Origin: Welwitschia mirabilis | Taxonomy: Eukaryota | Reading direction: 5' to 3' | Assembly (NCBI GenBank): GCA_051453625.1 | Contig: JBOZIK010000001.1 | Coordinates: forward strand, 41,801,335-41,846,926 | DNA: 45,592 nt | Shown: positions 3,875-45,592 of the stretch, piece after piece | Layout: every line of letters starts with the position of its first letter | Position numbering within the stretch: position 1 is the stretch's first letter | The notes under the pieces: model-generated | Databases searched by the model: none | The model's input: the letters and a program-made list of their open reading frames with translations, nothing else | What the model was told of the DNA's origin: nothing | Translations under genes and position numbers: made by a program

Positions 3875-5398
3875 ATAAAATGAAATTTTATAATTCTAAA
3901 TGCTTCATGTAAAATCATAAAAAGGGTAAATTTGTATTAAAAATTTTTAGAGTTGAGTTCTAATTATCAAATTTTTTAGCCTAATATTTAGATATAAAAT
4001 AGTTACTTAAATGTATGAGTAAATATTAAGCACATTGGCATCAAAATATTAATGTCTAGCCATTTCAATCATTTATCAAATTGAAAGCTACTAAAACAAC
4101 AAATTTGATTGTCAAAATTCTAATCTGATTGTTAACGTTCCAATTTGATTATCAAATTCTAATCTAATCATTGAAATAGAAGACTAATCATGAAATTTCA
4201 TATACAAATGTCATTTTATTAGTCTATTATAATATAATACAACTAATAACACTAAGAGAATCTCAGATTTAATGCCACCTAGGATTAATTAAGCATCAGT
4301 TAAGGTCCTTCCCTAATAAACACATAATTCTAGAGCCTTTATGGCATATAGAAAGGATTAATAAAATTAATAGATCTTTAAAGAAGTTAAAAAAGGACTA
4401 GAACCAAGTTTCAAGTTCACTTTATCATCAAGAAAAGGTAGTCCATTCAAAGTTCAACATCTATAAAAAGTACCACCCAATTATTAAAGATGAACTTCAT
4501 TATAACAAATCAACCTCAGTAATCTTTTATCCATCTCTACTCATAAATAGTAAAAAGACAGCCTTTTTTAATCATAAATTCTGTTTTACATATTTTCAAA
4601 ATTTTTCATTTTTTGAATAACATAAAGGTATTTCTTTTTTAAAATATATTTAATGCATTACTTTGTAGTCCATTTATTTCTAAAATTTTATTATCCTTGT
4701 CTTGAAGAAAAGTTGTTTTCTTTTAACTTATTATTATTAAAAATATAATAAAAGTTCTTTCTTCAAAAGGAATTAGGTGTGATTCACTTTTATATAAATC
4801 ATGAAACTAAATAAGTTCTAAGTGAAAAATAAAGAATTTTTGCTTCGATTATTTACTATTATAAATTTTTTATTTTTTTAATTTATTTTATGAAGTTAAT
4901 ATAAGAAAAACTATACCACCCACTAGGGTTAGTAGTTTATTTAATCTGGTAAAAACCTATGTAAATCCCTTACTGACTTAGGGGCCGACCATCAAATGTT
5001 AAGGTTTTTTTTATGATTTACCCTAAAGATGTTGAATCCCATGCTTAAATGCAGACTAAATATAAGGTATAAACCATAATCCACCTCACATATCATAGTA
5101 TTCAAATCCAAAACAGTAAACCTCTCAACTTATAATGTGCTAAACCCAATACATTATGCACCAAAATCTCTTTTTTCTATTTTTGACTATCCTTTTAGTA
5201 ATGTTTTTTTCTTTTTAATTTAGATTATGGGTTTACTTATTAGCTTCATGATATCTTAGTACCATGTTATCTCTGATACCATGATGTGATATCTAAAGAA
5301 ATCCACTTACTTAATTAATTAATTTAAGTCAAATGATCAAATGTTAGACCCTTTTATTATAATCATATTAAAACTTCATTTGTTATAGTGATTTTAGA

Positions 5399-10200: not shown

Positions 10201-12700
10201 TTTTAATCCCATTAAACATTTTGAAAAGCCTTCAAAAACTTTTTGGATCCATTCTTTGAGTAGTTCCTTAAATGCCTTATGTAATAATAATCATGATTTA
10301 CAATGATTCAATAAGAGATTATTTGTTAATGAAATTTATCACTTCTTCATCTCTTATTTAGATTATGAAATTTGTGCTATTAAGGTTTGGTCCTTTTACT
10401 CTTTTTTCCTCTAATTAATTTTAGTTAGAAATAATTATATACCTTTTATGTTTTATCAATTAGTCTCTATTTGGGTTGGTTCTTATTTTTCCGAAAAAAA
10501 GGTACAATACCCGAGTAAATATTTTACACAGTTAGTTAATCTCTAAATGGTTAGGTCCTTATCTTTTAGAAAAAGTACATTTTTAATACTCAATTAAAAT
10601 CTCTAATGTGAACACTGGAAAAATTCAGAAAGTTAACAGATAAATGTTAAAAACCTATGAATCACCTATCGGTTAAATCTTGAACATGATAAAATCACTT
10701 GTCTTAGAAGTCCTCTTATCATTGTCTAAATTCTTCCTTAGCTGATTTCTTTGGTGGATGTCATGCTATCACTTAAACATATTTAACTTAACTAATGTAT
10801 TACTTTTATAAAATTACCATAACTATTAATCTTTTACTTGGGCATTTTAAAGTGATAAGATTGGATCAATCTAATCTTAAGACATTTGTATATCTATGAA
10901 CTTCCTTTTGAAGGAAGATGACTTGGTTCTTATGTTATCTCTTAATGATGTGAGTCTTTAGTTGTTAAAGTATGTCATCCTTTATTTCTCACCTTATTAC
11001 TTCATCCTTGTTATTAAGAGTACTTAATCATGTGTGCTTTACTTCAAACAAAAAAAAGGAAGAAAAGATATAAATAATAATCATTACCTTTCGTATATGA
11101 GCTAAAAAACATAGTCATCATGATGTCCTATCACACTGGGGTAAATTTTCTTGAGAGGGGCCTTTGGTAGTGTTAGTAACTATGGGAACTCCATTAGGGG
11201 GTCAGTTGGTCATGCTTCATAGGTGCTTACTCCTCTAATGGTGGTTATACTTCCCTCACCATGTAAATAATTATCACTTAGAGACTATAGGATTAGTGAT
11301 ATCCCCAGTGTCATTAGAGGCATTGCTTATTTTTTAGACTCATTTCTATACAGTACTCCCACATGATCATTTCACCTTTTAGGATTCTAGTGTGTTTTTT
11401 GGGTGGAAGTAGGTGAGTTCATTTTTAAGTAGCTTTTGATCTTATCATTTATTAATTGAAAACATTAGATCTTCTTGAAATCATCATAATCATTGCTTAT
11501 TTGAATGGTACTTTATGAAGTTTTTACATCGTGTCATACATCATCAATTAAGTGATTTTATGATTTCTATCAAGGGACTTTGCTAAGTTAGAATTTAGAG
11601 TAGGTATACAATCTTCTTTATATTCCTAGTTGTTTATTTTCATTTGCTTTCCCTAGTCATTTTACTTAGTATTTCAAAGTCGTTTTCATACTTTTTCATC
11701 ATAATACTTAGAACTTCATCACTTAGTAGTTTTCTTACTATTTTTGTTTCACTTGTGGTTTTTATCCATAGAGGTTCACTTTCTTTTAGCACTTTGTAGA
11801 TTATGTTCCTTTAGCATCTTTTTTAGTTATCACACCTCCACTTACAAATCTTGAATGTTTATTGAGTTTGGGAACATTTGAGGATTTTTCTTAGTATTAT
11901 TTCTCTTTCTTAATGCATTTTCATTTCCCTACCTTGATACCCTTTTCTCTTGCCTTGAGTTCTTTTTGGTTCCTTTACTTATTAGCTTTTATCTATCTTT
12001 TAGACTTCATGAGGACTTTCTGAGGCCTTACTGGTGCTATGATTGACTATCTAATTCTACTTGAACTTCACTGTTTTACCAAATCTTTTGTTTTCTGATT
12101 GTCATCCCATGTCTGCTATCTAGACAACAGACTAGATGACAATAGCTTCGTATTATGTTATTGCAATATGGAACATATTGATTCATTTGTGGGGGGTAGA
12201 ACATATTTGTGTGACATTTTTGGTAAAAATTTTAATTATGAGGATCAGTTTGAGCTTTCATGATACATACATATGATGTTCTAGTCCAATTATGATTTCA
12301 TATTACTTGTGAGATATGTATTATGGGTATTGTTTATAAGAACATAGCAAAGGAGCTATAAGATCTTCTTGCAGGTGTGGTCCAAAAGATTCGGAAGATC
12401 ATGGATAAGGGAAGTAATGTTATGATTATTCTTGATATATTTGCCCCTTGTATAATGTACTTAAAACTTACTGATTGATTTATATACATCATTTTGAGTT
12501 ATCACTATTCTTGATTAAACATGCACAACATTTATGTGAGTTATTATGGTTATATCTTTTGATAAATTTAATTAGTTCTCCTATTAGATGCACTACAGTT
12601 TTCCATGAATTAACTCACTCAAACTGGATGTGAACAATAAAGATCATAGATGAAATTTACCTTTCTTAAAGTAATAATTCAAACAAAATTTAGTTTGTAC
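7248..12700 (+). mobile_element. Degenerate non-autonomous Athila-like Gypsy element (5' LTR ~7248-8460; right boundary uncertain)
   Basis: LTR-like start TGTAAATGCCAAAT. At 8467-8483 TGGCACTATTGTTGCGG resembles a deaminated tRNA-Asp PBS (TGGCGCCGTTGCCGGGG). Internal G-run PPT-like TGTGGGGGGTAG near 12188. No recognisable gag/pol. Confidence 0.5.
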
Positions 12701-27024: not shown

Positions 27025-30000
27025 GTAAAATATTAACTAAACTCATGTTGTCACAAAAAATGGGTACCTGACCATAGTTAATTTCAAAATCCTTGATCAT
27101 TTCCTTCATCCCTAGAAGATGGATACAACAACTTCCTGCTACTATATATTCTGGTTTTACTATAAAAAGAAACATATAATTTTGTTTCTTACTTGTTCAT
27201 CCTATCAAATATGATCTAAGAAAGAAGCAAATTCCACTTGTGCTTTTTCTATTATTCTTGCATCTAGTCTAATCTACATTTACTTAATCCTACAAGTTCA
27301 AAATATGTTCCTTTGGGATATCATAGCCCACAATCACTAGTATCTTTTATATATCATATGATTCTTCTAACACCTTAGAGGTAAGATTTCTTAGGGTTTG
27401 CTTCATGTCTAGCACACATAGCCACACTAAACATTATATTAGCTCTACTAGCTATTAGATATAATAAGCTTCCTATCATGCTCCTATAGAGTTTTTGATT
27501 CACTGATTTTCTATGATCATCAAGACTAACTTACAAGAAGTTGATATAGGAGTAATGGTTGATTTTGTATTTTCAAGTTCAAATTGCTTAAGCAAATCCT
27601 TTGCATCTTTTGATTGAGAGATAAAAATGCCTTATTTTGTTTGCTTAATTTGTAGTCCAAGAAACACACTGACTTCTCCAAGCATACTCATCTCAAAGTG
27701 TGTTGTCATAATATTAGCAAATTCTTTTGAGAAATCCTATTTTGAGGCTCCAAAAATTATATCAACGTAGATCTAAATGATAATAAAATAGTGCTTAAGT
27801 TTCTTTACAAATAGAGTTTTAGTCATCGCTCCCCACCTATAACCACTATCCTCAAAACATTATCAGTTTTTCATACCATGCCCTAGAGGCTTGTTTTAAT
27901 CCATATAAAAACTTTTAGAGTCTATGAACATGGTTTGGTTTATGAGGATCTATGAATCCTATTGGTTGTTCCACATACACTTCTTTGTTGAGAGTTCCAT
28001 TTAAGAAAGCACTTTTCACATTCATTTGGAATACTTTAAAATTTTTGAAGGCTGTAAAGGAAAGAAACATTCTAATGCTATTTACTCTTGCCATAGGAGC
28101 AAAGGTGTCTCCTATGTTAATCTTTTCAATCTGATTGTAGCCTTGGGTCACTAATTCTAGCCTTATTCTTGATTACATTATTGTGTTCATCACATTTATT
28201 CTTAAAAATCCATTTTATTCTAATCACATTCTTATCCTTTCGTCTTTCCACTAATTTTCAAACATTATTTCTTTTAAATTGTTGTAACTCTTCTTGAATT
28301 GCCATCATCTATTCTTCATGAATTTCAGCCTCTTTATATTTTCAGGTTTCAACTTGAGAGACATAAGAAACATGAGCACAAAACTTTTTAATTAAATTTC
28401 TCATGTGAATTTTTGAGTTCACATATCTAATAACTGATTTAAGAGGGTGATCTTTTAGTTCTTTGACATTTTTGGAAAGTACCTATTGCATTGTTTCCTC
28501 TTGCTTTATATTTATGACTTCCTTGAGGGTTGCGATACTTAGGGATATATCTTCTTTACTACTTGAAGGAAGAAGTTCGGTACTAACGTCATCTATTTAC
28601 ACATTTATGGACTCTTACATCATTAGACTTCATTTATTAAAAATCTTATAAGCTCTAATTCTAGTTGAATATCTAAGAAAATTTGCTTCATTTACCTTAG
28701 ACTTACATTTTTTCAATTTTTCTCTACCTTTTAAAATAAAGCACTTGCTTCTAAAAAATTTAAAATAAGATACATTTGGTTTTCTTCCTTTTTAAAGCTT
28801 ATAGGGGATTTTATCCATTCTGGGTCTTAGATATTCTCTATTGATAATATAACATGTAGTACTTACTGCTTCAGCCCAAAAGGATTTGGGTACCTCCTTA
28901 TCATTTAGCATTATTCTTGCCATCTCTTAAAGGACCCTGTTTTTCATTTCTACTACTCCATTTTGTTGTGAGATTTTTGTTGCTAAAAACTAATGTTCTA
29001 TACCATTTTCCACACAATATTTCTCAAAGAGATAGTTTTCAAATTCCTCTTCATGATTGCTTCTAATTCATTTAATAATATACCCCTTTTAATTTGAATT
29101 TTATTACATATTTCAATACACTTTTTAAAAGTTTCACTCTTGTTTTCATGGAAAGAAATCCAAGTAAATCTAGAGAAGTTACTCACCATTATCAGATAGT
29201 ATCAGTTTCCTCCCAAGCTTTTGGTTTGAGTAAGACCTACCAAGTTCATATAAATAATTTCAAGGGGCATTGTTAAGGAAACTAAGTTTTTACTCTTATG
29301 ATAGGTTCTTATTTGTTTTCATTTTTTGCACGCATTACACAACCCATATTTATCAATATTGATCTTAAGTATTCCTCTCACGATTTCCTTTTTAATGATG
29401 GTTTTAAGATGATCATAGTTTACATGACCTAACCATTGGTATCATGACTCGTCTTGGTTTATATAAGAAAAATGACAACCAGAAGAAGGTTGATTAATAC
29501 TATAAACACTGTCTATTCTATTTGCTTTAAGAAGAACTTCATTTGCTTTGTCATGTCTAACTTCACATTTTTCTTAATAAAAAATAACTTTATGACCTTT
29601 ATTACAAATCTGACTAATACTAAGTGAATTATGTTTAAGACCATTTATATATGAAACTTCATTAATTTGGACATGTTACTTCCACTGATGCTACCAATGC
29701 CTTCAATTTTTACCTTTCCCTCATCACCAAAGGTTACTTCTCCTTCATCAAAATCATCCAAGTTATGGAATTTTGATTTTTCACCTATCATGTGCCAAGA
29801 ACAACCACTATTCAAATACTAATAAGTTTCACTTGATGCCTTAAACGCTGTTTGAATCAACAAGCTTTTCAAATTGTTAGCTCTTACCTACTTAGTCTTT
29901 TTGAACTGTTGTGGTATAAAGGTTTTAGTAATAAATTTAAATGGGGAAGCACTAGTATGATTTGAAAATAGCATTACCTTTCTAAATTTACAAAATAATT

Positions 30001-30800
30001 TTGAGTGGCCTCATTTTCCATGAAAATGATAAGTAAGTTTTAAAAGAAAATATTATTTTACCATGTTACCTTATCTGCATGAATGGCTGGTTTTGGGGAG
30101 GTGAATCCAATACTTCTTTTGTTTTGAGCTGATTTTTCTATTTCAAGCATCTATTTCAATTTACTAGAATTGTTAGAAAATTTATCTATAGAATGAGACA
30201 AACTTTTAACCTCTTGAATTAGCTCCATGTTCTCTGTTTGGATCATCTTATATTTGGCCTCTAATATTTCTTTTTCCTTGTTTAGAGCCTTTACTATTTT
30301 GTTTAATTCATTGATCTGATTTGCTAGTTCTTCACACTCTGAGTACAGCTCTTGGCAAGTGTTTTTTGAATCTTCTTCTCCTTCCTCTATAATGTCTAAA
30401 TCATTTGGTTCAATTGAACAAGACCCCTTTTTTAAGGGAGGTACTATTGCCATGAAAGAGAGTTTCCTATTTCCATCTAATTCTTTACTAGAGCTGCTAT
30501 CTTCTTCCTTATTAGCATTGTCCTAAATGGCAATGAATGATGGTTTCTAGGATTTTTTATAGTCCCATCTGTTATTAGGACATTCACACGCCACATGTCC
30601 ATATCCTTTACAAGCATAGCACTGGATCTCCTTTTCTTTATCTTGATCTCTTCTTGACTTGGATTAACCCCTTTTAAGCCCCTTGCTTGATTTTCCATCT
30701 CTTCTTTTTCTGTTTAAGAATTTTTAAATCTTTTTGCTAATAGTGCAACCTCATCCTCATTAAGGTCATTAACTGATTTTTTAAATTTGGAATCTTCCTA
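27025..30800 (-). pseudogene. Sirevirus-like gag-pol pseudogene truncated at both ends
   Basis: EDEVALLAKRFKKF; zinc knuckle CYACKGYGHVACECP (~30575-30625); protease YLNSGCSWHMIG (~29790-29820); integrase; RT TFAPMARVNSIR..FQMNVKSAFLNG..EVYVEQP and IYVD; RNase H EYIVAGSCC..IFCDNMS. Confidence 0.92.
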
Positions 30801-30960
30801 CACTATAAGAAATAGAATGCCTTAATTATAGGACATTTTAAAGCATACATTTTAATAAATGCCTTAAATGAAAAAAAAAAAAAAGTCTTTTTAAGGCATT
30901 TTTCCAAATAAACGCCTTAATTGTTTTTAATCTTATTAAACAAACGTCATAAACGTTATG
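30801..30960. repeat. Left TIR and subterminal repeats
   Basis: CACTA start followed by AATGCCTTAA, AATGCCTTAA, TTAAGGCATT, AACGCCTTAA. Confidence 0.85.
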
Positions 30961-31094
30961 ATCTTTTAAGATACTTAGTAGGATGAACCTTGTAAAAGCC
31001 AAGTTTATTTAAAAAAAATACAGTCGCGCATTGCTAAAAATAAAACCATCATGCGTTTATTCCGAAAACATAGCGCGGGCTATTGCGCATATCT

Positions 31095-32679
31095 TACGAA
31101 GAGGATCTTGATGCCCTAGCAATTCTGTGAAGACGAGTTTCTGCATATGCTAAGGCTTGATAGACCATTCTCTGTGAGTGATCCTAACTCTCCTCGAGGT
31201 CGCTTACTAAGAGAGTTTGAGAAGGAGTTTTAGGGCTGTTGTTTTGGATTCGATATCAGGAACATTCCTAAGCTCTGATATGCGTCACTCTCCATCTCCA
31301 TCTGATTGTTATTCTGATGAAGAAATGGTACTGGAATCCATTGTGCAGGTGGCAAAGTTGGAATTTGAGAAAGTTGTGCAGGCCGAGCTTAGTCGGACAA
31401 GAGTACAGATTATGAAAGGAACAAAGACTGAGGAACTTATGCAAGAATGGGGCATGGATGAAAGAGTGTTCCAGCATTCATCTGCTCCCAGTAGCATAGA
31501 TGAATTTAGGGATCTTATGGATATTCTTGTGGAGTTGCCTCCCCTGCGTGAGGAGTATGGTCCTCTTGTGCAGACAATTAATGGAGTTCTTCTTAGATCG
31601 TTGAATCCGATGTTGTTTCAGAATACTAAAAGCAAGGGAAGTCTAGTGATGCAAATATCGAAGCCAGTGGTTATTCCTGCAGAGATGGGCACAAATGTCA
31701 TGGATATTCTTGGCTATTTAGCCTCTGTAGGAATCGAGCAGCTCAGTGCTAAATTCCACAAATGAATGCCCCTTGAGTATTCAAGATTTTGCAGTGGATT
31801 CACATCCTACTCTTGAGTCTTCAAGAAGGCTATTATTAGAATGCCCAAAAGGAAATTTCAACGCCTACCAGAGGTTCATTGCAAATACATGTTCATGAAT
31901 ATTCGGATTTGTCAAAGTACAATTCAGACTCTAAGAAGGCAAAAGCATCATATGCTACTGATAAATATACAGAATATGTGTCTCTTGAAGAGCTTGCTCC
32001 ATTGGCAACGGACAAGCTAGAGGCCTTATCTATCGAGGGATCGAAAATACAATCCAATATGGGGGGACAAGAAGCTCCTTCAAATGTTAGTGCAATGTCG
32101 ATGGGAGGCTTATCGGTTTTCCAAAGGATAGAGTCTCGTAGTAGTGGAGGATTAGGCCTTAAGGGAATTACTACTTTGCATTCGCTAGATACAAAAGGAT
32201 GCAGTGATGATCTTGGTGGCCTATTGGATTTGTCTATTAGCCTGGAAGAATGGTTGGAGATTAACTCTAGAGCTGTGGATGAACAATAAACGAGGGAGAG
32301 GACAACAAAAATACGTACTGCACATCATGCCATTAGACCAGATTTAGTCATCCTCAAAGCCTCCGAAAATGACAAGGAAAACCAGGGTAGTAAAAAGTGT
32401 GGAAATGGGAGATGGGGCTTTATGGGGAATNNNNNNNNNNNNNNNNNNNNNNNNNNNNNNNNNNNNNNNNNNNNNNNNNNNNNNNNNNNNNNNNNNNNNN
32501 NNNNNNNNNNNNNNNNNNNNNNNNNNNNNNATGACAAGGAAAACCAGGGTAGTAAAAAGTGTGGAAATGGGAGATGGGGCTTTATGGGGAATACGTTAAC
32601 AATAGGTGTATTGATTCAGTTACAAGATCCACTGTGCAATTTTGAACCTGGTGGAGCATCAATGATGGCTCTAGTTTAA
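31095..32679 (+). pseudogene. PMIR1: Captured internal fragment of PLASTID MOVEMENT IMPAIRED 1-RELATED gene
   Basis: EFLHMLRL..SPRGRLLREFEKE; TEELMQEWGMDERVFQ; LPPL..GPLVQTINGVLLRSLNPMLF..GSLVMQISKPVVIPAEMG..LASVGIEQLS; EYVSLEELAPLATDKLEALSIEG; GFMGNTLTIGVLIQLQDPLCNFEPGG. Stops at 31231, 31763, 32287, 32677 plus frameshifts. NT-C2 domain and C-terminus absent. Confidence 0.9.
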
Positions 32680-34169
32680 GCCATTGGAACAATGAGTGGC
32701 TCCCCATTCTTCATCAAATTTTTATTTTTAAACGCGATTCTGAAGGTACATCCATTGCCTTTCCTTCTTTAAATGCGATTGAAAAGTTACATACTCCTTC
32801 TTTTGAAGAATTGCAGGGATTTTTAGATACGCAAACTAAAAATGCATCAGAGCTTCCAACTGTAGAAACGAAGGCATTGCTTCTCCTTCTAAAGGAACAC
32901 CTATCTGGCCTCCAATTACTACCATCAATTAACTTTGATGGCCCTCGATTAACCCCTTCGGCACTGTTGAAAGCCATTTATTTTTCATGTTCTTTATTAT
33001 CGATGGTATCCATGTAGGATTTTCTGAATCCTTATATAAGCATTTTTCATTATCTTGACCCCCTCCTGAGTGGGGATGGTTATTTTTGTAACTTTGAAAT
33101 TAATACAACTCTTAAAACTTGGGCTAAATAAAGCCCACAAAGTAGAAAATCTTAAAATGTTTATGACATTAATTCATTTTTTAGCTTACATGTGTTGCTA
33201 ATTTCTTATTGTATTATTTTTGGAAACTTCTCAATCTCTCTTACATAACATTTTCAACTGGTGATTTTCAATTTTCAACTTGTCCAATTAGTTTAACATA
33301 ACCTCTTTTATGTTTAAGAGACATGGTACTTCTACCGTCTTACAATCAATTAAAAAAAAATGAAAACTACAATTTGAATTAACTTCCTTTAGGCAACATG
33401 CATTATTGGTTTCATGACCTTCCTCCTGGAATGTAGGCAACTGAGAACTCAAGCACAGATAGTTCAGACCACATCATAACTTGCAGTCTGCATGGGCAAG
33501 ACTGAACATGAACGTAAGTTTTCTGATGAAATAGAAATTGAGGCATAGAACCATATAAGTCCTCTGCATGGAGCAGCATGGAACAGCACAAACTAGGAAA
33601 GTTATTAATTATTCTAATGCATTTGTCTTGTTAAGTATTTAAATGTATTTATCACTAATTGTTGGATCTGTTATAAATTCTCTTTCTCTTGACAAGTCAT
33701 GGCTATACATTTGTATATAAATAAGCTAAAAATATTTTCAGCCGAAAGGCTGCATATCTTTCTGTCCAAGTCACCAAAACTTTTGAAAACAGCACTGTGT
33801 TTCGAGGTCTTTATCCTTCAAATAAAGCAATAACTGACTGTATTTTTCTAAATTGATATGTTATTCTCACAAACTCCAGAATTTTCTGTTCAAGTATTAA
33901 GTCTTAACAAATTCCTCTGAAATCAATATCAGGAACATGGTTCAAATGTGATGAAATTTACAATTATGATAGAAATATTCAAAGGGGACGACAAAAATAG
34001 TCATGTCATGTACTGGCTTTTGTTTCCTTGCTTTTCCAGAAAGGAAAGCCTGCATAGATGCTTATTGGAAGAAGTTAAATTTAAATGGATCAAAAAAGGT
34101 GTTGGATATTCTGAATGGAACTTCAAGAGTTTCAGAAGATAGGCTAAAGTGCAACAATTTCATGTCAAG

Positions 34170-36860
34170 AGCCTACATGGTTTATTTTTGAGAGCTTTAG
34201 TATTCCACAAGATAGCATCTTGTTTGCATCACTGATGTAGAAAGAGGTTTAGTCTGACAACTGCAGTTTCCTCCTTATGCCATATCTAAATTGGATAAAC
34301 TGGTTATGCACAGAAGGGTAATTTCTAGAATTGTAAGTCATCTTTTGAAAACATTCTGTGGAAAAGGTAATGTTAAATTAGATCATTTAAGTAATGAACT
34401 TCAGCAGATCACAACTACCAAATGGGTTGCCATAGATGTCGAACATGACAAATAGGAAATTCATTTGTTTTTGATAACTAAATATATGAACAAAATGTAT
34501 GACCTTGTGTAGGATGCCTTGAATAATGAAAAGAAATGTACATTTAACAAGTGCATGGAGAAGGCTTTGTTCTAATCAGCCTGCGAGCAATAGTCCCAAT
34601 TGGCACTGTTGGCNNNNNNNNNNNNNNNNNNNNNNNNNNNNNNNNNNNNNNNNNNNNNNNNNNNNNNNNNNNNNNNNNNNNNNNNNNNNNNNNNNNNNNN
34701 NNNNNNNNNNNNNNNNNNNNNNNNNNNNNNNNNNNNNNNNNNNNNNNNNNNNNNNNNNNNNNNNNNNNNNNNNNNNNNNNNNNNNNNNNNNNNNNNNNNN
34801 NNNNNNNNNNNNNNNNNNNNNNNNNNNNNNNNNNNNNNNNNNNNNNNNNNNNNNNNNNNNNNNNNNNNNNNNNNNNNNNNNNNNNNNNNNNNNNNNNNNN
34901 NNNNNNNNNNNNNNNNNNNNNNNNNNNNNNNNNNNNNNNNNNNNNNNNNNNNNNNNNNNNNNNNNNNNNNNNNNNNNNNNNNNNNNNNNNNNNNNNNNNN
35001 NNNNNNNNNNNNNNNNNNNNNNNNNNNNNNNNNNNNNNNNNNNNNNNNNNNNNNNNNNNNNNNNNNNNNNNNNNNNNNNNNNNNNNNNNNNNNNNNNNNN
35101 NNNNNNNNNNNNNNNNNNNNTTCTAATCAGCCTGCGAGCAATAGTCCCAATTGGCACTGTTGGCTCTTGGTGCTCAAATTAAACATCTCGAGCTAAATGG
35201 AACATATTTGAGTGTGGAAGTTCAACATCCCAATGCAAATCAACTTAGTAATAGATGGGTGTTAGTAATTTTTGAAAAGTATGTTGGAGGCATTGTCAGT
35301 TTTTACAAATGTTTAGGAAGTGTAAACCATGAAAATGATTCAGGGAAATGAGGAACGATAACATTTCTGTCTGTAGAAGCAGCACAAATGGCTATATCTC
35401 AACTCAACAATTTGAAAGTGGAAGGATTTTCTTTGTCAGTCTCTTCATTGAATTTATCTCACAGGTTTGGGAACAAAGCACTTGCATTTTTTACTGTGAG
35501 AGCAACAATCATGTGGACTTAGCAAAGGAGTGGCAATAATTGAATGTGCCATTAAGGATGTTGGTGGAGTTGCATTGTCACGCTTAGGGAAATAGATAAG
35601 AACATCAACTATATAAGTGTAAGCACGGAAAAAAACATTGTTCTATATTCATGGCTGGTCTTGATGCATATGTTATAGAGCACTAATTATTGCAGACTTT
35701 AAAGCTTTTAACAGATCCTGTCATTCTGGATGCTTTTATTCTCAGAAATCCTGCTGCTCAGCAAACTTCACAATCTGTCTGTGAAAAAGGCTTAATAAAA
35801 GAGCTTTGTGTGTTTTTTCCTTGAGATAAATTTCGGGTTGTTATTTGCTATTCAGACACAAAGGATTTGTATTCCCATGCTTTGGTTACATTGGAGGGCA
35901 GTAATCATCTGAAGGCGACAAGAGCACTTACCCATCTTCAAGGAACAATTCTTCCTAAACGCTTATCGTGGTAAAAGATAACCTATCAAGAAACATTTTA
36001 TAGCACATTATTGATTGCCTATTGTATATTTGATGTCTTAGAGAATGAGGTAGCCATTTGGTTAATTCATTTCCATAAGAGAATCCTAGTGATGTTATGA
36101 AAAACTTTTATTCTCTGATTTTGTAAAATATTTTTAATGAAGAATAAACTACGTTTTGAAGTTTACCATCTCTGCCTCTTTCGCATAAGCACTGGTCCAT
36201 CAACCTCATCCTGTAATTCATGCTTTTGAAGTTTAATTGCCATTCTTATTGCTACTAAAAATTGACAAAAATGTAATATGATGCTGTAAATTAATGGCAA
36301 TCTTCACCTAATAGTAAATTTCATTCGCAGGTGCATCTGTTTGCATTACAAAGACTGACTCTGCTTCTTACAAGGTGAAGATATCCTCAAACAAAATGGA
36401 ATCAGTTGCAAAATATAGGTTGATGTTGTAGTAGCTAACTGAAGGTATTACAACAGAACATGATAAGCTTGATCCTGAAGTCCTGCAACTTCTCTTTCAT
36501 CAACAAGGTATCGAAATTTTACGATCATTGGAAAGAGAGATAGAAACTTGTATAGTGTTTGACAAGTGCAGCTTAAGAATCAAGGTTTTTCGGCCAGCTC
36601 AAAAAATTGACAAAGCAATAAAAGGTGTTGTAGAAGGCTTGATGCTACTCTCTGAGAACCAGTACCATAATATTTTTCTTAGAGTATAGAGCTTGTCATA
36701 TGGATTGATGAAGGAAATTATCAATGGGTTTGGTGTAGATCTTGCTAGACTTGAGGTACTTATGCTGGAAGGAGATTTCATGCTTAATACATGTTGTCAT
36801 AATTTATGTGATCATGGAAATAAAGAGATCAAAATCAGAGCTAGAAATAGTATTGCTGAA
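34170..36860 (+). pseudogene. DEAH11: Captured central fragment of a DEAH11/DEAH12-type RNA helicase-RBR gene
   Basis: PTWFIF..HLVCITD; LLKTFCGKGN; CMEKALF..LALGAQIKHLEL..SVEVQHPNAN; LQGTILPKRLSW*KI; SYKVKISSN; EVLQLLFHQQGIEILRSLERE; LMKEIINGFGVDL..FMLNTCCH..HGNKEIK. Probable intron ending TTCGCAG at 36330. Many stops. Confidence 0.85.
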
Positions 36861-37112
36861 ATCACTGCATGTGTGATCGAATGGTTGCTTTGGAATCGAC
36901 AGGTCGAGGAGGAGATTGTTCTGACTTGTAGGTATTTTACTTTTCAGATTACTAGGCCTTTAATGAGTGATTAAAATGTACAGATTATATACTGGGTTTT
37001 GTGTGGCAGGGACCTTGGTATTGGAATAGTCGCATAGAATCCTCTAGGAAAGGGCTTTTTAGCTGCTGGACCTAAAATTGTTGAAACTCTTGCAGATAAT
37101 GATATCAGAAAG
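36861..37112 (+). pseudogene. Captured aldo-keto reductase fragment (auxin-induced PCNT115/AKR13-like), two exons
   Basis: ITACVIEWLLWNRQVEEEIVLTCR, then a GT-AG intron at 36932-37009, then [33 protein letters not shown] followed by a GT donor at 37113. Matches [40 protein letters not shown]. Confidence 0.9.
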
Positions 37113-38896
37113 GTGTGTTCCTCATACTCTAGTACTTTATATATCCATTTTAGAGTCTGATCAGTAATCTATAAATCTCGAGCAATTTTTTATCAAAACA
37201 GTAAAAATAAGTTGTTGTAGTCTTACCAATTACCAGTCCTAAGGTCAATCATAATATGGAATTCTAGACAAAACTATGGGCCTTACCAGGAGTACATAGA
37301 ATTTGAGCACTTCCTTTGTCATAATATTGTATAATTTTCTTGTGAGGTTTCCTCTAAAATTTATGCCTCTGACCCTCCTTTTACAACATCATCCAATCTC
37401 ATTAGATATTGTAAGAAAACAAACATTGATATCCCCGTTATTGCTTTGCTATGGCAATGCAAACCTGTAGAACAAGAACCTAAGAGAGAGGATTTATGAC
37501 AGTATTATGACTACAGAATCAGAAGGGAGTAGAAGGAGATTCATCTTCTGATTTTGAACATCACTTCCTTAGTTGTTCTAATTGGCCTTCATCACTTTAT
37601 TTCTTCTCTTCTTCTTATTCTCCTTATACTTTGTCTCATTATAGACCTACTATAGCAATCATTCTTTTTTTAGTATTTACAGACAAGACTATGTGGCCGA
37701 CTTTTAGGAATGCTCGCTTAGCTGCTTACACCCAGAATTAGACAAGTCTTCAACGTTATTTTTCTATTCGTGGTGCTTATTCTCTTTGCTCTCATCTCTG
37801 TGATGCATGTGAATTTCGTTGCTTAGGTTCTGGGTTTCATGTCTTATTTTTTAAGTTGGGTTACTTTGAGCAATCTGAATATAACCTTCAAATAGAAATA
37901 TCGTTTAGTTATTAGTTTTGGTTAAAGAAGCATGTTACAAATCCTAGTTGTATTAATGATTTATTAGAAGACGATGTAAGTAAAGCTTAAGAAATTTTGT
38001 GTTTTCCCTTTAATATTTCACTACTTCATCAATAGGCTTAGAAGATTTTGTATTGCTACTATTGTTATGAAAGAAAAGAAAGAGTTGGATCACTATGACA
38101 AGAACCCTTTAATAAATCTATCAGATAATTCTAGTCTTTTTGATCATTTATCATCTCTTATTTTTCCCTTAAGGCTTTTAGAAAATTCCACCAGATAAAA
38201 TGCTCTGCTACATGGCTCCCAAGTAATAAATCACTGAGCTTCTATGAGAGCAAGTGTGAACTTTGTGTTTTTTGTCATTTTGCTAGATTTTCAAGGATTG
38301 ACCTCACAGCCTATGCAAGACGATTTGATCGTTTCGTATTATCAATCTACTGTGGTAGCTTTTCTTAAGAGACTTCTCATACAATGCTCTCATGTCTCTC
38401 TGAGTGATTCTCCCAAGTCATGTGGAGTTGAGTAGATAAGATGCAAGTTCACTTCGACAGACGGAGTTTCCTTTGAGTTAAATGCTTCTTGCTAAATTGA
38501 AAATCAATATACTGTCATCAAAATTGAAATGCTATTCTTCAAATGTACATGACTCTAATTCATTTACTGTAGATGATAAAACAGACACAGAACACAGTGC
38601 TAACTCTTCAATAATAATAATTTATTTTTGCAAGACATCCAAAGAGGCATTTTCAATCAAAAATACATCTAAGAGTAACAATCATGCCAATGGTAGTACC
38701 GACTTGCAGTAGATCGATTGAGTTAGCTAAGGTACTTGCAAAATCATTAGCTAAGATAGTAGCTGTAATTACTAACAAGGAGGCTAACGCTAAATAGGAG
38801 AGCATTCACATGTTGGTTTAAGGTAAACATCCACCATTAGTACAGGGTACACATCCCAGAAATGTCCGTTTGGGTAAAATAGTTAGAGTTGAAAAC

Positions 38897-39313
38897 CATA
38901 GTTAGATGGATCAAAGCAGATCGTGGAGCGTTTTTCTGATTAGTAGCTTCCGGATTGCTGAATCGCCTCAGATCGTTCTACAGATCACCCCAAATCACAT
39001 ACCAATTTTTGTAAAATCGCGGGTTAAAATCCTAAAGCTAGATTGAAACATTTGTTTCCATAAAATTGCAAGTTGAACAATTGATTTCTGTAACTGCACC
39101 CCTCATTTTTTTGGATGCGAAGGTTGTTTTGATGAAAATTGTAGATTGATTTTAATAAAAGCTTGGTTTATAAATAGAGCAAATTTGTTTTTCAACTTGC
39201 AGAATCCATTTTCTTTCATGAAGCACGATCCAGCTCTGATTTGAAGCATCTTTTATTGGAGCGCAATGTGGAATCGCCCGGATCGCGATTCCGATCCGCT
39301 CCATCTAATCATG
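38897..39313. mobile_element. 417-bp hAT-like MITE nested in the CACTA
   Basis: TIRs CATAGTTAGATGGA and rc CATGATTAGATGGA (12/14). 8-bp flanks TTGAAAAC / GTAAAAAC (6/8). Subterminal GATCG/AATCG motifs. Confidence 0.7.
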
Positions 39314-40399
39314 GTAAAAACACACATTTACTTGAGGATGGTGATGAGAGTCAGAGTAATGGACAATTCGTTATTATCATTTATAGCTAATGCTAAAAAA
39401 GAAAGGAAGGTGAGCGTCCTTGTCATATGGAGATGATCTCTTCAAGTCAAAAATGATGACAGAGATGAGCGAAATTTATTCAAGTTGTGTCTAAAGTATA
39501 GATCTTCGATTAATTTCACTGGCAACAATACAGATATGCTCATATTAAAACATAAAGCAAGCCTCTTACCAAACTCCTCTTCCTACCAGTCAACTCTCTC
39601 TGGGCTCTATTGGTAGTAATCAATTTTTTTTTGCACCTGCCTCCTCAATATCTATCGATCTTCTTTGGGAACATTTAGTAGAACAGCAATGATGAGCGAA
39701 TACATAAACTTACACTTGTAAAGGCCCTTTACAATGGTCTCGATGCCCTTGATAGAGTCACCAGCTTCTGCCAGCAAAGTGATTCAAGTAGTTGTTGAAA
39801 GTTATAACTCAGTTGAGTTGGAGGAGGAGTTTCCAGCACAGTAGATACAGAGACATAGCACGGACACTTAAAGGAGATGGATGTTAAGTGAATAAATCAT
39901 TAGAGAAGAAAAGCTTTAAAAAAAATATATATATGTGTGCTTGGTCAAATTCCCATGGTCTGCCAATGCTGGCAGCTTTGTGGGATGGTGAATTTGAAGT
40001 GAATGGTTTGGAATGTATGGCTATTCATGAAGCGCCGTGTTAATGAAGAGGACAGCAGCATTCCAAAGGACTAGCTGTAACTACATTTCAACTGGAACTA
40101 TATGAGCTAAAGCTTCATAGCCATTGACATTTATCATTCTAAGCTTGGAGATAGCCAGAGTATAGAGGTTTAAGATAGATTATGAATCCCAGGATTACAT
40201 ATACCAAACTTCTGTTTCAACAAAGTGAACATGCTACATAGTAATTTGAAGCAAAGCATTTCATTGGAAGCTCGACCTATACCTTGTATTATTTTTAGTT
40301 CTATATTGCCTTGAGCGATGCTTGAGATGAAATGGTGTGGCTATCTGTTTCACCATTAAATGTTTGATTTCTGAAGTAATAGGTAATTGTTGAAAGTCC

Positions 40400-41290
40400 T
40401 TACTGACAAATTTCAAGATGAAGGCTAATTCCCTCCTGGATTAGGCAGCATTGTTAGCTTTCTCCTAAAGAGAAAAGGTAGCAGGGAAAGATTAATACCT
40501 ATAGGACCACTATGGCACTATTATATACAAGCAAATATCTTAGAAGGCCAAACTAAATTGGTTAAATTCAAATGGAATCTTATGTGCTGTTTACACCCTA
40601 ACACACACTATGAACTTAGTGTAAAAACTTTAAGAGAACTCTAAATATCCAGGAGAGATTGTTAGTAGTTTGAAATACAGAGATTATGTCTTTGGACTTT
40701 TTAGCATTTTGGAAAATGTGATGTTATGGATTAAAGATAAGAAATAATCAAGGAAAATAAAAGATTAAAATAAGGATAAATTTCAATGAAAGAAACACAT
40801 GATAATTTAGAGGATGAAGCAAAACAATGGAATTTAGAAATAGGATCTATGCAGCATCGAATTTTGATAATAGAAATTATCTTCCACCAAAGGTTAGGGA
40901 GCAAATACTTTCATATCTGTGTTTGAAGTTTGAGTAGATTAAATCTAAAGCAGAAGGTCATTGAAGGACTTCCTAAATTTGATAGAAATACTTATGTAAA
41001 ACCTCATTTAAGAGGCATGTCTCCATCCTCTAAGTGTAATGAACTTAGATAAAAGCCATGGCACTTTGGAAAGACTCCATTCTTCAATAAGAAATCACAA
41101 AGTGTGAAAAGTTTGAATGGTGTATTACATGATGACAAGAAGAACCAAGTTAAGTTGGTGATCAGGGATGGCCTTTTGACTAATGATAACATTATGACAA
41201 ATGCAGTTTGGGATATAACTTATCAAAGCATATGCACTGTTAGATTCTGCATTTTGGGATATAACATTGTGACAAAAGCTATATTTTGAA
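40400..41290 (+). pseudogene. Decayed L1-type LINE ORF2 scraps
   Basis: PKEKR*QGKINTYR..IIYKQIS (RT N-terminal motif) at ~40465-40540 and LVIRDGLLTNDNI (zf-RVT-like) at ~41155-41195. Confidence 0.4.
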
Positions 41291-42479
41291 CGTTAATGAA
41301 GTTTCAGGATTTTTCCTAAGTTTGTTAGATTCTGCATCCCACTTTCTTAAGCCACTGTAAACATTCATGGAGTTGAGAGTCTGATGTTCTGACACCAGTT
41401 TTAGGAAAGCAGATTTTGGAATTGGGTTGCATAGCCCTTTCTTTGGATACTGTCTTTATATGCACTGTGTAAACAAGGGAATCCCCTATTCAAAGATAAC
41501 ACTTGCATTAACAATAGGTCAAATTGATAAGTATTAACTGTAGTGTAGAATGCATATAACAAAACGTTACATCTCAGAAATTGGACAAATTGTAAAACAT
41601 TGTGGCTGAAATGACTTTTCTTTCCTCATTCCACATGTGCTTCTTGAAGACTGGCTTTCACATACAAGGGTGATTGGCAAGTATATTGTCAGAACAACAT
41701 GTCCACATTTACAGGACCCTTATTAGATGTCTCTCCATGCTCTTATTTTCAGATTCTTTTGGTTATGGGTCTCATGTTTTTTTAAGATTCTTTTTGCAGG
41801 TAATACTTCATTGAAAGACGTAAGCAAAATGGATCAACCTTTGCATGCCATGAAATTACTGCTTGGAACCAGTATTTCATAATCAGGTACTACTTACTTA
41901 TCAATTGAATTCTTCCATAGTATACTAAATGTGTAATATACTACATTTGGGCATCATTTAATTCATAATTAACATTTTCTTTATCTTAGCTTTCTTTTTT
42001 GGTTAATCAATAGCATTTATTTATCTTTATGAATATGCTAAAATTACATGAATTATTTTTCATTCATAATATATGTTTTGTCAATCATTTGAATTGATAC
42101 TACAATTTACAATTGTTTCTCACTCACTTGGTTGCATAAAAAGTCTAGAATCATCTAAAGGAACTTAACTATACAATCATTCTAATAAGAAAATCATTTT
42201 CCCCCTCTTGTTCCTATTTAACCTCTTTTATAGGACCTCCTTCCTTTTAGCCTAAAGGATGCTCTTAGTATTTGATAATAAACTCTTTGGTACTTTGCTG
42301 GCTCTGCAATTTTCACTTCTGTGTGTCAGTATTCAATTTTCGAGCTATCCTTGGATTTCTTTCCACACAAACTTACCAAAAAACCTCTAACAAAGGATTA
42401 AATCATGATTTAGGGATGTGCTAACGCATCATAAGGATGTTTATTTTATTATTATAATTATTTTTTTTTCTAGATGACA

Positions 42480-42862
42480 TCTTTTAAGGTGTTTATTGGA
42501 TAAAATGCCACAAAATGGCTTTTGAGGCATTTATAAAAATGAACACCTCAAAATGGATTGAAGGCCTTTATTTAAAAATTGCTCAAAAGGTCTTAGGATG
42601 CATTTCTTTAGAGAAATGCCTCAAAAGTCCTATTAAGGCATTTCTTCAAAATAATGCCTCAAAAGCCTTTTATGCCACTTCTTAAAATAGTGCCTCAAAA
42701 GGCCTTTTAAGGCATTTTTATTAAGATGCCTCAGAAACTCCTTAAAAGGCAAGGTTTTTTAAAGCTTTTTGTGAAGAAATGCCTTAAAAACTTTGAAGGT
42801 TTTTTTTAAAGACCTTTTAAGGCATTTTTAAAATGCCTTAAAAGCCTATATTTATTATAGTA
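42480..42862. repeat. Right subterminal repeat array and TIR of the CACTA
   Basis: Many direct and inverted copies of AATGCCT(C/T)AAAA / TTTT(A/G)AGGCATTT, ending in TATTTATTATAGTA. Confidence 0.88.
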
Positions 42863-45592
42863 ATAGCTATAGTAACTATGATAGTAACTTGCTAAAGCAA
42901 TCCTACTAAAGCAACTCTAATATAATAACATGCTAGAATAACTTGGTATCATTCAAGGTGTTATCTTGATTGTTGTCCTGGATGTCATCTAGATGATCAG
43001 ATGGATGACAGCTACAGTAACTACTACAATAACTTGCTATAGTAACCCTACTAAAGTAACTTTGCTAGAGTAATTTTGCTATAATAACTTGCTATAGATG
43101 ATGAATTTTTTCATTCAAATCATTTCTAGCCATCATCTATTTATTTAAGATTAACTTATTAGATTTTAAAGCATTAGAAATAACTTTAAAAGCATTCAAA
43201 TTAATGTAAATGGTATCATTTTCCATTATTGTCTCCTCGTATGGATGTTAGAAGTCTATCATAAGTACCTTGAATGGAACATGTCTCAAAAATAATCCAT
43301 AAATGATTAGAAATGTTAGAAACTATTATTTCTTAATTATCATGAAGGTTAGAATACTTTTATTATTAAATGATTAAAAACCTATTCAAATAAATCTAAA
43401 ACATACTTTAAAAATGATGTTAAATATTGTTAATTTAACTCACAACATAGTTCCTTACTAAATATTTGTTAGCCTTTAACAAAGAAAGTAGAGATGAATA
43501 GAATAAGCCAAATTGGAAAAAGGATGAAACATAACACTTAAGCATAAATGATCTTACATTATCAAATATAGAGTGCATATCAAAAAGATATTTCAATTAA
43601 ACATCATGAGAAATATATGCATTAAATTTAGAATCATGGTTTTAGTTCTATAAAAAACATATTTCTAATAAACATATTTGTTTTAATAAAGCCAATCTTT
43701 TGATGATTCTAAAGATTCCACCCGTATGAAGTAGATAAAATTATCATGAACTTTAAGTAAGTTTAAATGTGATGATTAGAAGGAATAAGATAAAAGTTTT
43801 GAGGGATGTAAAATAAAAATTAAAAGCCAAGAAGGCAAAAAACACATCAAAATAAAATTAAAAAGGAAAATAAAATAAACAAAAATAAGCTAAGGCATTA
43901 TGAAAACAAACACTAAACTATCTAGATCGTAAATTCTATCCTCTCAAAACCTAATACTTTATTTGAAAGAATAGAAAATGTAAATATTTTTTAAAATATC
44001 AAATTTATTTCTCTAATTCTTTGATCCTATTCTAAATAAAGAAACTATAATTAACAACTTTGAAATTATCTAACTTAATAAATAGACATAAACACATTGT
44101 ATTAGAACATACTCTACTTAAATTTTATTACTTATTAATAGTCTCTCATTTTATATTAAAGATACATGATTCTTGATCAATAAAACGTTATAGTTTTTTA
44201 TGAATAGAATAAATGAAAATGATAATGTATTAATTAAAATTGACATATCATAGCTATAATCTCAAGCATCAATTTAAAATATGTCTACAAATTAATAATA
44301 CTTAATAATGTAATAATCATAACACTCTTTAAAGTGTACTTATTTTTACCTTGAGTTCCTCCCATTACAGAGTGTTCATTTTTAAACCATTGATCTTTCT
44401 TTTATCACAAGCGATAGGATCCATTAGACAAGACATAGGTCATTAAGTAACTTTGCTCCTAGTGTGGTAATCCCTAAAATTGTTTAGAAGTAATTATCAA
44501 AGTTCATTTATAATATAAATTGATATTTCATTTTTATTTAAAACTTATTTTTATTTTCCTTTTTCTCTTTCTATATATATATATATTCCACAAATATGAA
44601 AAGATACTTATGCATTATCAAACTACTAATAACTTGTAGCCTTAATAAGAATGAAGTTGATAAGGAGACAAAACATATAATATAAACAAACTAATTAAGC
44701 ATATTTTCCTCTTCTAGAATGAGAGTTCATAGGAATTTAAATGTCTTTCAATTGGCTAAAATCTAATTAATCATTTATATACTATAAAAACCTAGAATAA
44801 TTATACATACTATATGATTAAAAACTTAAAGTCAGGTTAATAGATGTTGGAAAAAAGAAACTATCTAAAAAATTACATTCACATAAGCATAAGTAATGGA
44901 CATATCTTCAAGAAAAGAGGCTTCACTATATTAATTACTATAAGTAGAATGTAGTTTCTTTACTTTACATTTGTCCCTATGCCAAAAAAAAAAAAAAGTT
45001 TAAAATATAGTTATTACATTATACTTGTTCAAAAAAATAAGGATCAAACCATATAGAAACCAATTGATAGACAATGAAAGGTATATGATCATTTTTGAAT
45101 AGAAGAAATTATTGGCAACAAAAATATAATGATAAAAACTTGATAGAAAAAAATTTATAATCTAAATAAGAGATGAATAATTGATAAATTTCATTCAAAC
45201 ATGGTCTCTTATTAAATTGATGAAAAATATAATTATCATTTCATGATTCATTGATGGCACTACTCAAAGAATAGATCCAACAAATATTAGAAGGCTTCTT
45301 AGGATGATTGATTAGGGTATATTTGATAAGACTAAGAAGTTCCATAAGATTCAACTTAAAACATGGATTCTCATCAATAAGATTAGGCCTTCCCTAATTT
45401 AATACTCTAAGGAATCCTAAATCACATTTTTCAAAATTAGGAGGTAATGTGGCATTATGGGTATAAGAAAGAATTGCATTTTGATTTTCACTAGGAAGCA
45501 TGAGTGAAAGAGATGGAGAAATATTTTTAATTGGATTAGACTCTTCAAGTTTAATTACTTTATGAGATGTAAGAAGTCTATCCCTTATTTGG
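42863..45592 (-). mobile_element. Internal region of a second, inverted copy of the Athila-like family seen at 7248-12700
   Basis: The reverse complement of ~45030-45520 aligns by eye with ~10003-10500 (e.g. TTGGATC(C/T)ATTCTTTGAGTAGT, AATGAAATTTATCA..TTCATCTCTTATTTAGATTAT). GTCATCTAGATGA motif at ~42985 is shared. Confidence 0.65.

Follow-up and report, generated by a model that had tools for sequence, protein, structure and literature searches.

En/Spm of maize, the type CACTA element, carries a 13-nt terminal inverted repeat (TIR; CACTACAAGAAAA) and 12-mers to which TNPA binds, six of them at the 5′ end and eight at the 3′ end. CACTA elements are defined by their CACTA termini, by subterminal direct and inverted repeats that extend over several hundred nucleotides, and by a 3-bp target-site duplication (TSD) (PMC8978399, PMC6379663). 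Several of those described in plants carry pieces of host genes. The wp allele of F3H in soybean contains Tgm-Express1, a CACTA element of 5.7 kb whose five host gene fragments behave as exons and introns (PMC1947982). In Arabidopsis, the Pack-CACTA elements start with CACTACAA, are flanked by a 3-bp TSD and hold cargo partly of unknown origin, and a model of tandem insertion plus aberrant excision has been described for them (PMC6379663). In the results of packFinder, which discards singletons, the Pack-CACTAs of maize have the largest number of donor loci (PMC8903248). A 2026 survey of 23 vascular plants (Plant Commun), Welwitschia mirabilis included, reports that all major transposable element (TE) superfamilies capture exons, and that 13.68% of the capturing TEs on average hold at least two fragments (PMC13477047). 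The present analysis deals with a window of 45,592 nt of W. mirabilis DNA (contig JBOZIK010000001.1, positions 41,801,335 to 41,846,926), with about 30% G+C and seven runs of N. Positions 30801-42862 of this window are read here, with moderate confidence, as a probable fossil of a non-autonomous Pack-CACTA, that is, a CACTA (En/Spm-type) transposon of the Pack-TYPE kind with captured gene fragments, in a gymnosperm genome.

Elements of this kind are already well documented in plants. The original prediction for this locus, which held gene capture by En/Spm elements to be less documented than that by other vehicles, is right in kind and over-rated in novelty, given Tgm-Express1, the Arabidopsis Pack-CACTAs, the maize elements and a capture survey that includes W. 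mirabilis itself. Similar in organization is Tgm-Express1, which likewise lacks a transposase, is bounded by inverted repeats of the CACTA type and holds several fragments of unrelated host genes, their exon/intron structure preserved (PMC1947982). It differs in being a 5.7-kb element with five fragments, found in a mutant allele and spliced into transcripts, whereas the present element measures about 11.35 kb, has three recognisable fragments plus 7.1 kb without assignment, is heavily decayed, sits in a gymnosperm host and is known from sequence alone. The Arabidopsis family (Pack-CACTA1a and its relatives) is multi-copy, has intact TSDs and has been seen to move in epigenetic recombinant inbred lines (epiRILs), while the trinucleotides flanking the present element are CTA and ATA. 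The gymnosperm survey treats the same phenomenon in the same plant group, but its results are genome-wide statistics and its illustrated examples are long terminal repeat (LTR) retrotransposons, whereas here one DNA transposon is dissected; the supplementary tables of the survey may list Welwitschia CACTA captors (PMC13477047). In the main text of the packFinder paper no gymnosperm, Welwitschia, Ginkgo, Picea or Gnetum is mentioned (PMC8903248), and the main text of the Welwitschia genome paper contains neither 'CACTA' nor 'DNA transposon' nor 'gene fragments' (PMC8275611). A literature search for Welwitschia and CACTA gave no paper on such an element among the matches listed.

The left end of the element is a canonical CACTA end of the type CACTATAAG (CACTATAAGAAATAG, also written CACTATAAGAAA). 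Direct reading and a mismatch search place the TIR at 30801-30816 on the plus strand (CACTATAAGAAATAGA), and it agrees at seven of eight positions with the CACTACAA start of the Arabidopsis CACTA1 TIRs (PMC6379663, PMC8903248). At the right end, direct reading and alignment identify a degenerate TIR on the minus strand at 42847-42862 (reverse complement TACTATAATAAATATA); this end reads ...TTATTATAGTA, and its inverted match to the left TIR holds at 13 of 16 positions. Aligned to each other, the terminal 60-mers score 40, a value reached by 5 of 2828 random 60-mers of the window. The TIR match is weak when taken alone, and its weight lies in its position: the 13/16 inverted match coincides exactly with the outer limit of the right motif array, and TIR-like words stand at the outer edge of both motif arrays, facing outward. 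A further word of this kind occurs at 5375-5390 (...TTCATTTGTTATAGTG); it resembles a minus-strand CACTA-type end with three mismatches from the left TIR, has no adjoining subterminal motif cluster and is probably a chance occurrence.

The arrays in question are built of one short subterminal motif. The left repeat region (30801-30930, 130 nt) contains four copies of the motif AATGCCTTAA/TTAAGGCATT in both orientations, as found by motif search, and the right one (42481-42846; about 380 nt) contains ten core motifs, also in both orientations, including a 37-nt palindromic tandem unit repeated 6.3 times at 42502-42733. With at most one mismatch, TTAAGGCATTT matches 16 times in the window, compared with 3.1 matches expected, and none of 100 shuffles reaches this number; four of the matches lie at 30815-30920 and seven at 42522-42841. 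The 7-nt core (AAGGCAT/ATGCCTT) is found 33 times, and the only 500-nt bins with at least three core matches are 30501-31000 (three) and 42501-43000 (ten), each with both orientations. Within the 45.6-kb window, motif clusters are therefore confined to the two ends of the element, where direct and inverted copies face inward. Closely spaced direct and inverted motif copies over several hundred nucleotides at both ends are what has been described for CACTA subterminal repeats (PMC8978399). Both arrays are predicted to be transposase-binding sites, and the longer one is at the right end. The likeness to En/Spm extends to the CACTA-type TIR and to short subterminal motif arrays that occur in both orientations and are longer at one end; En/Spm differs in encoding TNPA and TNPD, neither of which is detectable in the present element in six-frame Pfam scans.

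Between the two arrays, the identifiable interior is host genomic DNA, comprising internal parts of three genes, namely a PMI1/PMIR1-like one, one for a DEAH11-like helicase and one for an AKR13-like aldo-keto reductase (AKR). The first piece is a pseudogene fragment at 31135-32676 on the plus strand, detected by Pfam and tblastn, and corresponds to about residues 615-1098 of a 1249-residue homologue. Its PMI1_PMIR1-2_C domain is matched in Pfam with E values of 1e-11 and 3e-15, its tblastn identity is 49-65%, and two frame changes and three in-frame stops are visible in the printed alignments, in which no intron is seen. The best named relative is a Ginkgo protein. The N-terminal 614 and the C-terminal 150 residues of PMIR1 are found nowhere in the window by tblastn. 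The second piece, at 34216-36872 on the plus strand, likewise found with Pfam and tblastn, is a DEAH11-like pseudogene fragment covering about residues 873-1506 of a 1744-residue homologue. The Pfam domains RBD_DEAH11 (E 6e-25), KH_DEAH11_2nd (2e-20) and KH_DEAH11 (2e-11) score above the Pfam cutoffs here, while RRM_DEAH11 and KH_DEAH11_1st give weak matches, the latter below the cutoff. The tblastn alignments of this piece contain 12 stops and several frame changes, together with a non-aligning stretch of about 240 nt (about 36090-36329) that ends with ...ttcgcag| at 36329 and is read as a retained intron. The last 160 codons align without gaps to a 384-residue product of a W. mirabilis transcript, with 111 of 160 residues (69%) identical and three stops. 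The open reading frame (ORF) with the RBD domain matched only five proteins at E ≤1e-3 in a search of representative sequences, and the KH ORF only one in a word-indexed search.

The third piece, at 36873-37113 on the plus strand, was spotted by eye and then confirmed against solved structures and a Welwitschia transcript. It belongs to an AKR13/perakine-reductase-like gene and corresponds to about residues 162-215 of a 327-residue transcript product of W. mirabilis, or about 155-215 as mapped by tblastn. It consists of part of one exon, a GT..AG intron of 78 nt (36932-37009) and the next exon, which has one stop. When read through, its translation matches perakine reductase, whose structure has been solved, with E 3e-6 in two stretches (chain residues 169-197 and 195-227) that are split at the GT..AG intron; the Welwitschia AKR product aligns over residues 148-219, and in the unambiguous part 47 of 53 residues are identical to it. 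Pfam gives no AKR match in the ORFs or the six frames of 37000-42450, nor in 30801-37100, a segment that includes the first AKR exon; tblastn, even at relaxed settings, finds no additional exon of this gene downstream. The DEAH11 homology ends at about 36872 and that of AKR starts at about 36873, in the same frame and within one stop-to-stop ORF (36690-36974), with no spacer between the two.

The presence of introns in both the DEAH11 and the AKR piece indicates that genomic DNA, and not mRNA, was copied. All three pieces lie on the plus strand, in line with the single strand named in the original prediction, and each of these unrelated gene families is represented by an internal piece only. 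The closest proteins to the DEAH11 and AKR pieces are products of W. mirabilis transcripts, and the G+C content of the window (about 30%) is near the 29.07% given for the Welwitschia genome (PMC8275611), which agrees with the non-angiosperm host that had been guessed from the letters. Pfam scans of the six read-through frames (stops as X) of 30801-37100 and 37000-42450 detected no transposase or other TE protein domain in 30801-42450, the only domains being those of PMI1 and DEAH11. Nor was an autonomous CACTA transposase (a DDE protein of the Transposase_21/24 type) found anywhere in the window in the Pfam scans. In this sense, three components of the original prediction have held up: the CACTA-type ends with one subterminal repeat family at both of them, the lack of a transposase, and the co-oriented gene fragments. 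An interior with significant similarity to host protein-coding genes and no transposase is what characterizes Pack-TYPE elements. The element retains only its cis parts, namely the outer CACTA-type inverted repeat and the arrays of the subterminal motif; it would no longer code for anything and is probably immobile.

The cargo is decayed throughout, with three stops in PMIR1, 12 in DEAH11 and one in AKR. Of the 160 DEAH11 codons that can be compared with the Welwitschia transcript, 49 differ, and for 25 of them one C>T or G>A change in the window copy would suffice, while the reverse change accounts for five (binomial p 3e-4). The same substitution test gives 54 to 21 and 47 to 18 for PMIR1 against two homologues, and 67 to 31 and 54 to 25 for the whole DEAH11 piece; against foreign homologues, the general AT bias of the host could contribute to the excess. 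In Welwitschia, an excess of C>T/G>A has been described as characteristic of DNA that is methylated and silenced (PMC8275611), and here it identifies the copies in the window as derived and dying. The pieces are not equally diverged: DEAH11 (111/160) is further from its Welwitschia transcript than AKR (47/53; Fisher p 0.006). This hints that the two may have been acquired at different times, which is as much as stands of the serial capture originally proposed; a paralogue outside the database, as the true DEAH11 donor, would explain the difference just as well.

It is important to note that several observations weigh against a single CACTA insertion at this site. The right end reads TAGTA and not TAGTG, its terminal base having changed from G to A. 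The 16-mer TIR, with up to three mismatches, is matched three times in the window, when 1.7 matches are expected, and at least three matches occur in 21 of 100 shuffles. By direct reading, the candidate TSD is CTA on the left (30798-30800) and ATA on the right (42863-42865), so that two of three positions agree; the outer flanks abutting the element are ...GAATCTTCCTA on the left and GCTATAGTAAC... on the right. The right flank is full of CTATAGTAAC-type repeats, which could mimic the ACTATA core of the end and raise the chance of an ACTATA-like word beside the array. In addition, 7.1 kb of the interior (30931-31134, 32677-34215 and 37114-42480) has no assignable content. Finally, the left flank is a Ty1/copia fragment on the minus strand (27545-30800, with Pfam matches to RVT_2, integrase SH3, gag_pre-integrs, Pol_BBD and a CCHC knuckle) with a gag that breaks off where the element begins, the gag frame coming to within about 30 nt of the left CACTA end. 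This gag is not resumed to the right of 42862: no Retrotran_gag_2 or other Pfam match was found in six frames of 42863-45592 (2.7 kb), a domain that Pfam did detect in two other copia gag regions of the window. A tblastx comparison of these two regions with the right flank gave a best E of 0.11, and the left-flank copia was likewise unmatched by them, so that this comparison has no working positive control. As the copia gag lacks a continuation on the right, a simple insertion with intact flanks is not shown. What is supported of the original prediction is the transposase-less unit with CACTA-type ends and a gene-piece interior. In view of the heavy decay, three mismatches in a 16-nt TIR and one in a 3-nt TSD would be expected of an originally perfect pair. 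The CTA/ATA mismatch is compatible with such decay or with two insertions, and the flank mismatch fits a later insertion in the right flank extending beyond the visible 2.7 kb, a transposon-adjacent deletion, or two separate elements giving one end each.

The last of these possibilities is the main rival, which we consider unlikely. It supposes that two separate insertions of one CACTA family, of which one end each is seen (the left at 30801, the right at 42862), bracket DNA that never moved as a unit. The different flanking trinucleotides and the copia gag that is broken at the left and not continued on the right agree with it, as does the inequality of the repeat regions, the left one (130 nt, four motifs) being much shorter than the right one (about 380 nt, ten core motifs). 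Moreover, such a pair would be the starting point from which new Pack-CACTAs arise under the model of tandem insertion plus aberrant excision, described for Arabidopsis Pack-CACTA1a and other Pack-TYPE families (PMC6379663, PMC8903248). However, what lies between the ends is not ordinary chromosomal DNA. Truncated, internal parts of genes, all on one strand, make up a mosaic in which DEAH11 and AKR are joined without a spacer, and some capture process is needed to account for it in any case. The window has no inner ends and no motif clusters beyond the two terminal ones. The flank mismatch would be explained equally well by a deletion next to the element or by DNA inserted later on its right side.

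Less probable still is a mosaic built by some other vehicle or process, such as a Helitron, a Pack-MULE or repair filler DNA, with the CACTA-like ends as leftovers of unrelated small elements or chance matches. Cargo with several co-oriented fragments is typical of Helitrons. The weakness of the TIR match when taken alone would also suit this proposal, as would a GC-rich hairpin with CTAAT after it, inside the element at 39270-39308. Nonetheless, this hairpin is the only such site on both strands of 30000-43600 (two overlapping predictions, at 39270 and 39280), and it is located in the unassigned interior, downstream of all three fragments. Helitrons have 5′-TC ... hairpin ... CTRR-3′ ends, insert between A and T, and show neither TIR nor TSD; no Helitron-type 3′ end is present at either boundary of the element, the sole site being internal. 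MULEs, for their part, have long TIRs and a TSD of 9-11 bp, and hAT elements a TSD of 8 bp; the 10-nt flanks of the element (AATCTTCCTA and ATAGCTATAG) do not contain the 8-10-nt duplication needed for either. The motif arrays at both ends also depart strongly from chance and have the correct orientation. The hairpin region itself (39262-39308) is GC- and CpG-rich and forms a perfect hairpin with an 8-nt stem (GGAATCGC...GCGATTCC), after which CTAAT follows, and in this it resembles a Helitron 3′ end.

An artefact of assembly, in which scaffolding over two N gaps would have joined unrelated contigs so that the ends and fragments are not on one molecule, is very improbable. Two N runs do lie inside the element, one of 100 N at 32431-32530 and one of 507 N at 34614-35120, but each has an exact duplicate on its two sides, 32369-32430 matching 32531-32592 in full (62 nt) and 34570-34613 likewise matching 35121-35164 (44 nt). 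Residues 1051-1070 of PMIR1 align on both sides of the first gap, and residues about 1000-1005 of DEAH11 on both sides of the second; once one duplicate is dropped, both protein alignments continue colinearly across. The exact flanking duplicates and the protein alignments together identify the gaps as unmerged contig overlaps. The gap at 22654-22753, elsewhere in the window, shows the same pattern, with near-identical flanking duplicates of 40 nt (97.5% identity, 22614-22793). Apparently, contig ends that overlap were not merged by the assembler, and the gap sizes are fictitious. For this reason, the nominal span of 12,062 nt, which agrees with the approximately 12 kb first estimated, is reduced by 162 and by 551 nt to a real length of about 11,349 nt, i.e., some 11.35 kb. 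As for native gene neighbours or a segmental duplication decayed in place, nothing beyond co-location speaks for them, and they can be dismissed as scarcely credible, because the three genes are present as internal pieces only (residues 615-1098 of 1249, 873-1506 of 1744, and about 155-215 of 327) and DEAH11 runs into AKR in one frame without a spacer; the original prediction had named this as an outcome that would overturn it, and the evidence contradicts it.

The stretches of the proposed Pack-CACTA that lack a gene match deserve separate mention. A CpG-rich spacer of 204 nt (30931-31134) lies between the left array and the PMIR1 piece, with a CpG observed/expected ratio of 1.58, compared with 0.12-0.17 in the flanks; this patch may be what is left, unmethylated, of a promoter or leader of the parent transposon, or else DNA that was acquired recently. 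Between the PMIR1 and DEAH11 pieces, the interior at 32677-34215 has no Pfam match and could be donor intron or other captured DNA. The longest stretch, 5.4 kb at 37114-42480, contains neither a Pfam domain in six frames nor a further AKR exon, and its G+C content (0.33-0.35) is above that of the flanks. In the 53 plus-strand ORFs of at least 28 aa that overlap 37000-42450, Pfam detected nothing credible. Taken together, the three stretches have a G+C content of 0.33-0.35 and CpG ratios of 0.15-1.58, values mostly above those of the flanks (G+C 0.25-0.31, CpG 0.12-0.17). This composition fits genic or younger DNA, without proving it.

Searches in other data have not produced relatives of the element. 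A metagenome scan with the degenerate 25-nt palindrome of the right end returned 73 stretches at 72 loci, and blastn of 30700-43000 against all 72 gave three matches of 25-39 nt, which are chance matches and not related copies. For 35121-43300, 24 sequencing runs are listed, 14 with part of the stretch and seven, from three studies and two organisms, with at least half of the sampled words; such shares say nothing about continuity, copy number or expression, and none of the runs listed with part of the stretch is an RNA run.

Under the Pack-CACTA reading, the history of the locus may have been as follows. The gene pieces would have entered as DNA copies, made through repair or template switching while the element transposed by cut and paste, or through the joint re-mobilisation of two neighbouring elements. 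Movement of the unit would have depended on a related autonomous element acting in trans, and its insertion would have been into or beside the copia retrotransposon. The unit would then have been silenced, and have decayed mainly by C-to-T and G-to-A changes. A more ambitious version, which we hold to be improbable as a whole, sees in the element a record of stepwise exon shuffling by a gymnosperm DNA transposon, with late capture of AKR, RNA driven from the CpG-rich promoter, and small RNAs. In that version the AKR piece (89% identical to its Welwitschia transcript) would have been acquired much later than the DEAH11 piece (69%) and spliced in frame onto the last DEAH11 KH domain, where the two share similarity over a few residues. 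The 204-nt CpG-rich patch would be an unmethylated promoter, and sense RNA read through all three fragments would feed small RNAs directed against the PMIR1, DEAH11 and AKR donors.

The surroundings of the element form a mosaic of broken retrotransposons. Pfam analysis of the rest of the window covered 59 ORFs of at least 55 aa. A second Ty1/copia fragment lies on the minus strand at 16758-18060 (Retrotran_gag_2, Pol_BBD, gag_pre-integrs), and a further scrap of gag at 303-566, also on the minus strand. Just beyond the truncated copia of the left flank, the segment 26634-26993 shows a weak match to Ribosomal_L22 (plus strand, E 2e-6, at the cutoff) and another to PsaA_PsaB (minus strand, E 1e-3, below the cutoff), and is possibly a small organelle-derived insert. 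To the right, abutting the CACTA right end, the segment 42865-43097 consists of short repeats of the CTATAGTAAC/GCTATAGTAACTT type, with two 64-nt direct copies (78%) on either side of a short palindrome, and is taken to be another element. A dispersed repeat is represented by two inverted copies of about 400 nt with 71% identity (10107-10498 and 45025-45430), which lie 35 kb apart. Rfam gave no matches in the whole window.

If confirmed genome-wide, this locus would provide a dissected case of exon shuffling by a DNA transposon, and not by an LTR retrotransposon, in the gnetophyte lineage. The unequal decay of its fragments, as an internal dating signal, and the in-frame fusion of exons show how a chimeric coding sequence can arise. 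There is also a warning for annotation, since the PMIR1-, DEAH11- and AKR-like matches in this region are transposon cargo and not genes, and the two scaffold gaps are unmerged overlaps. Otherwise, the element fits the known picture of Pack-TYPE elements and of the widespread capture of gene fragments in gymnosperms.

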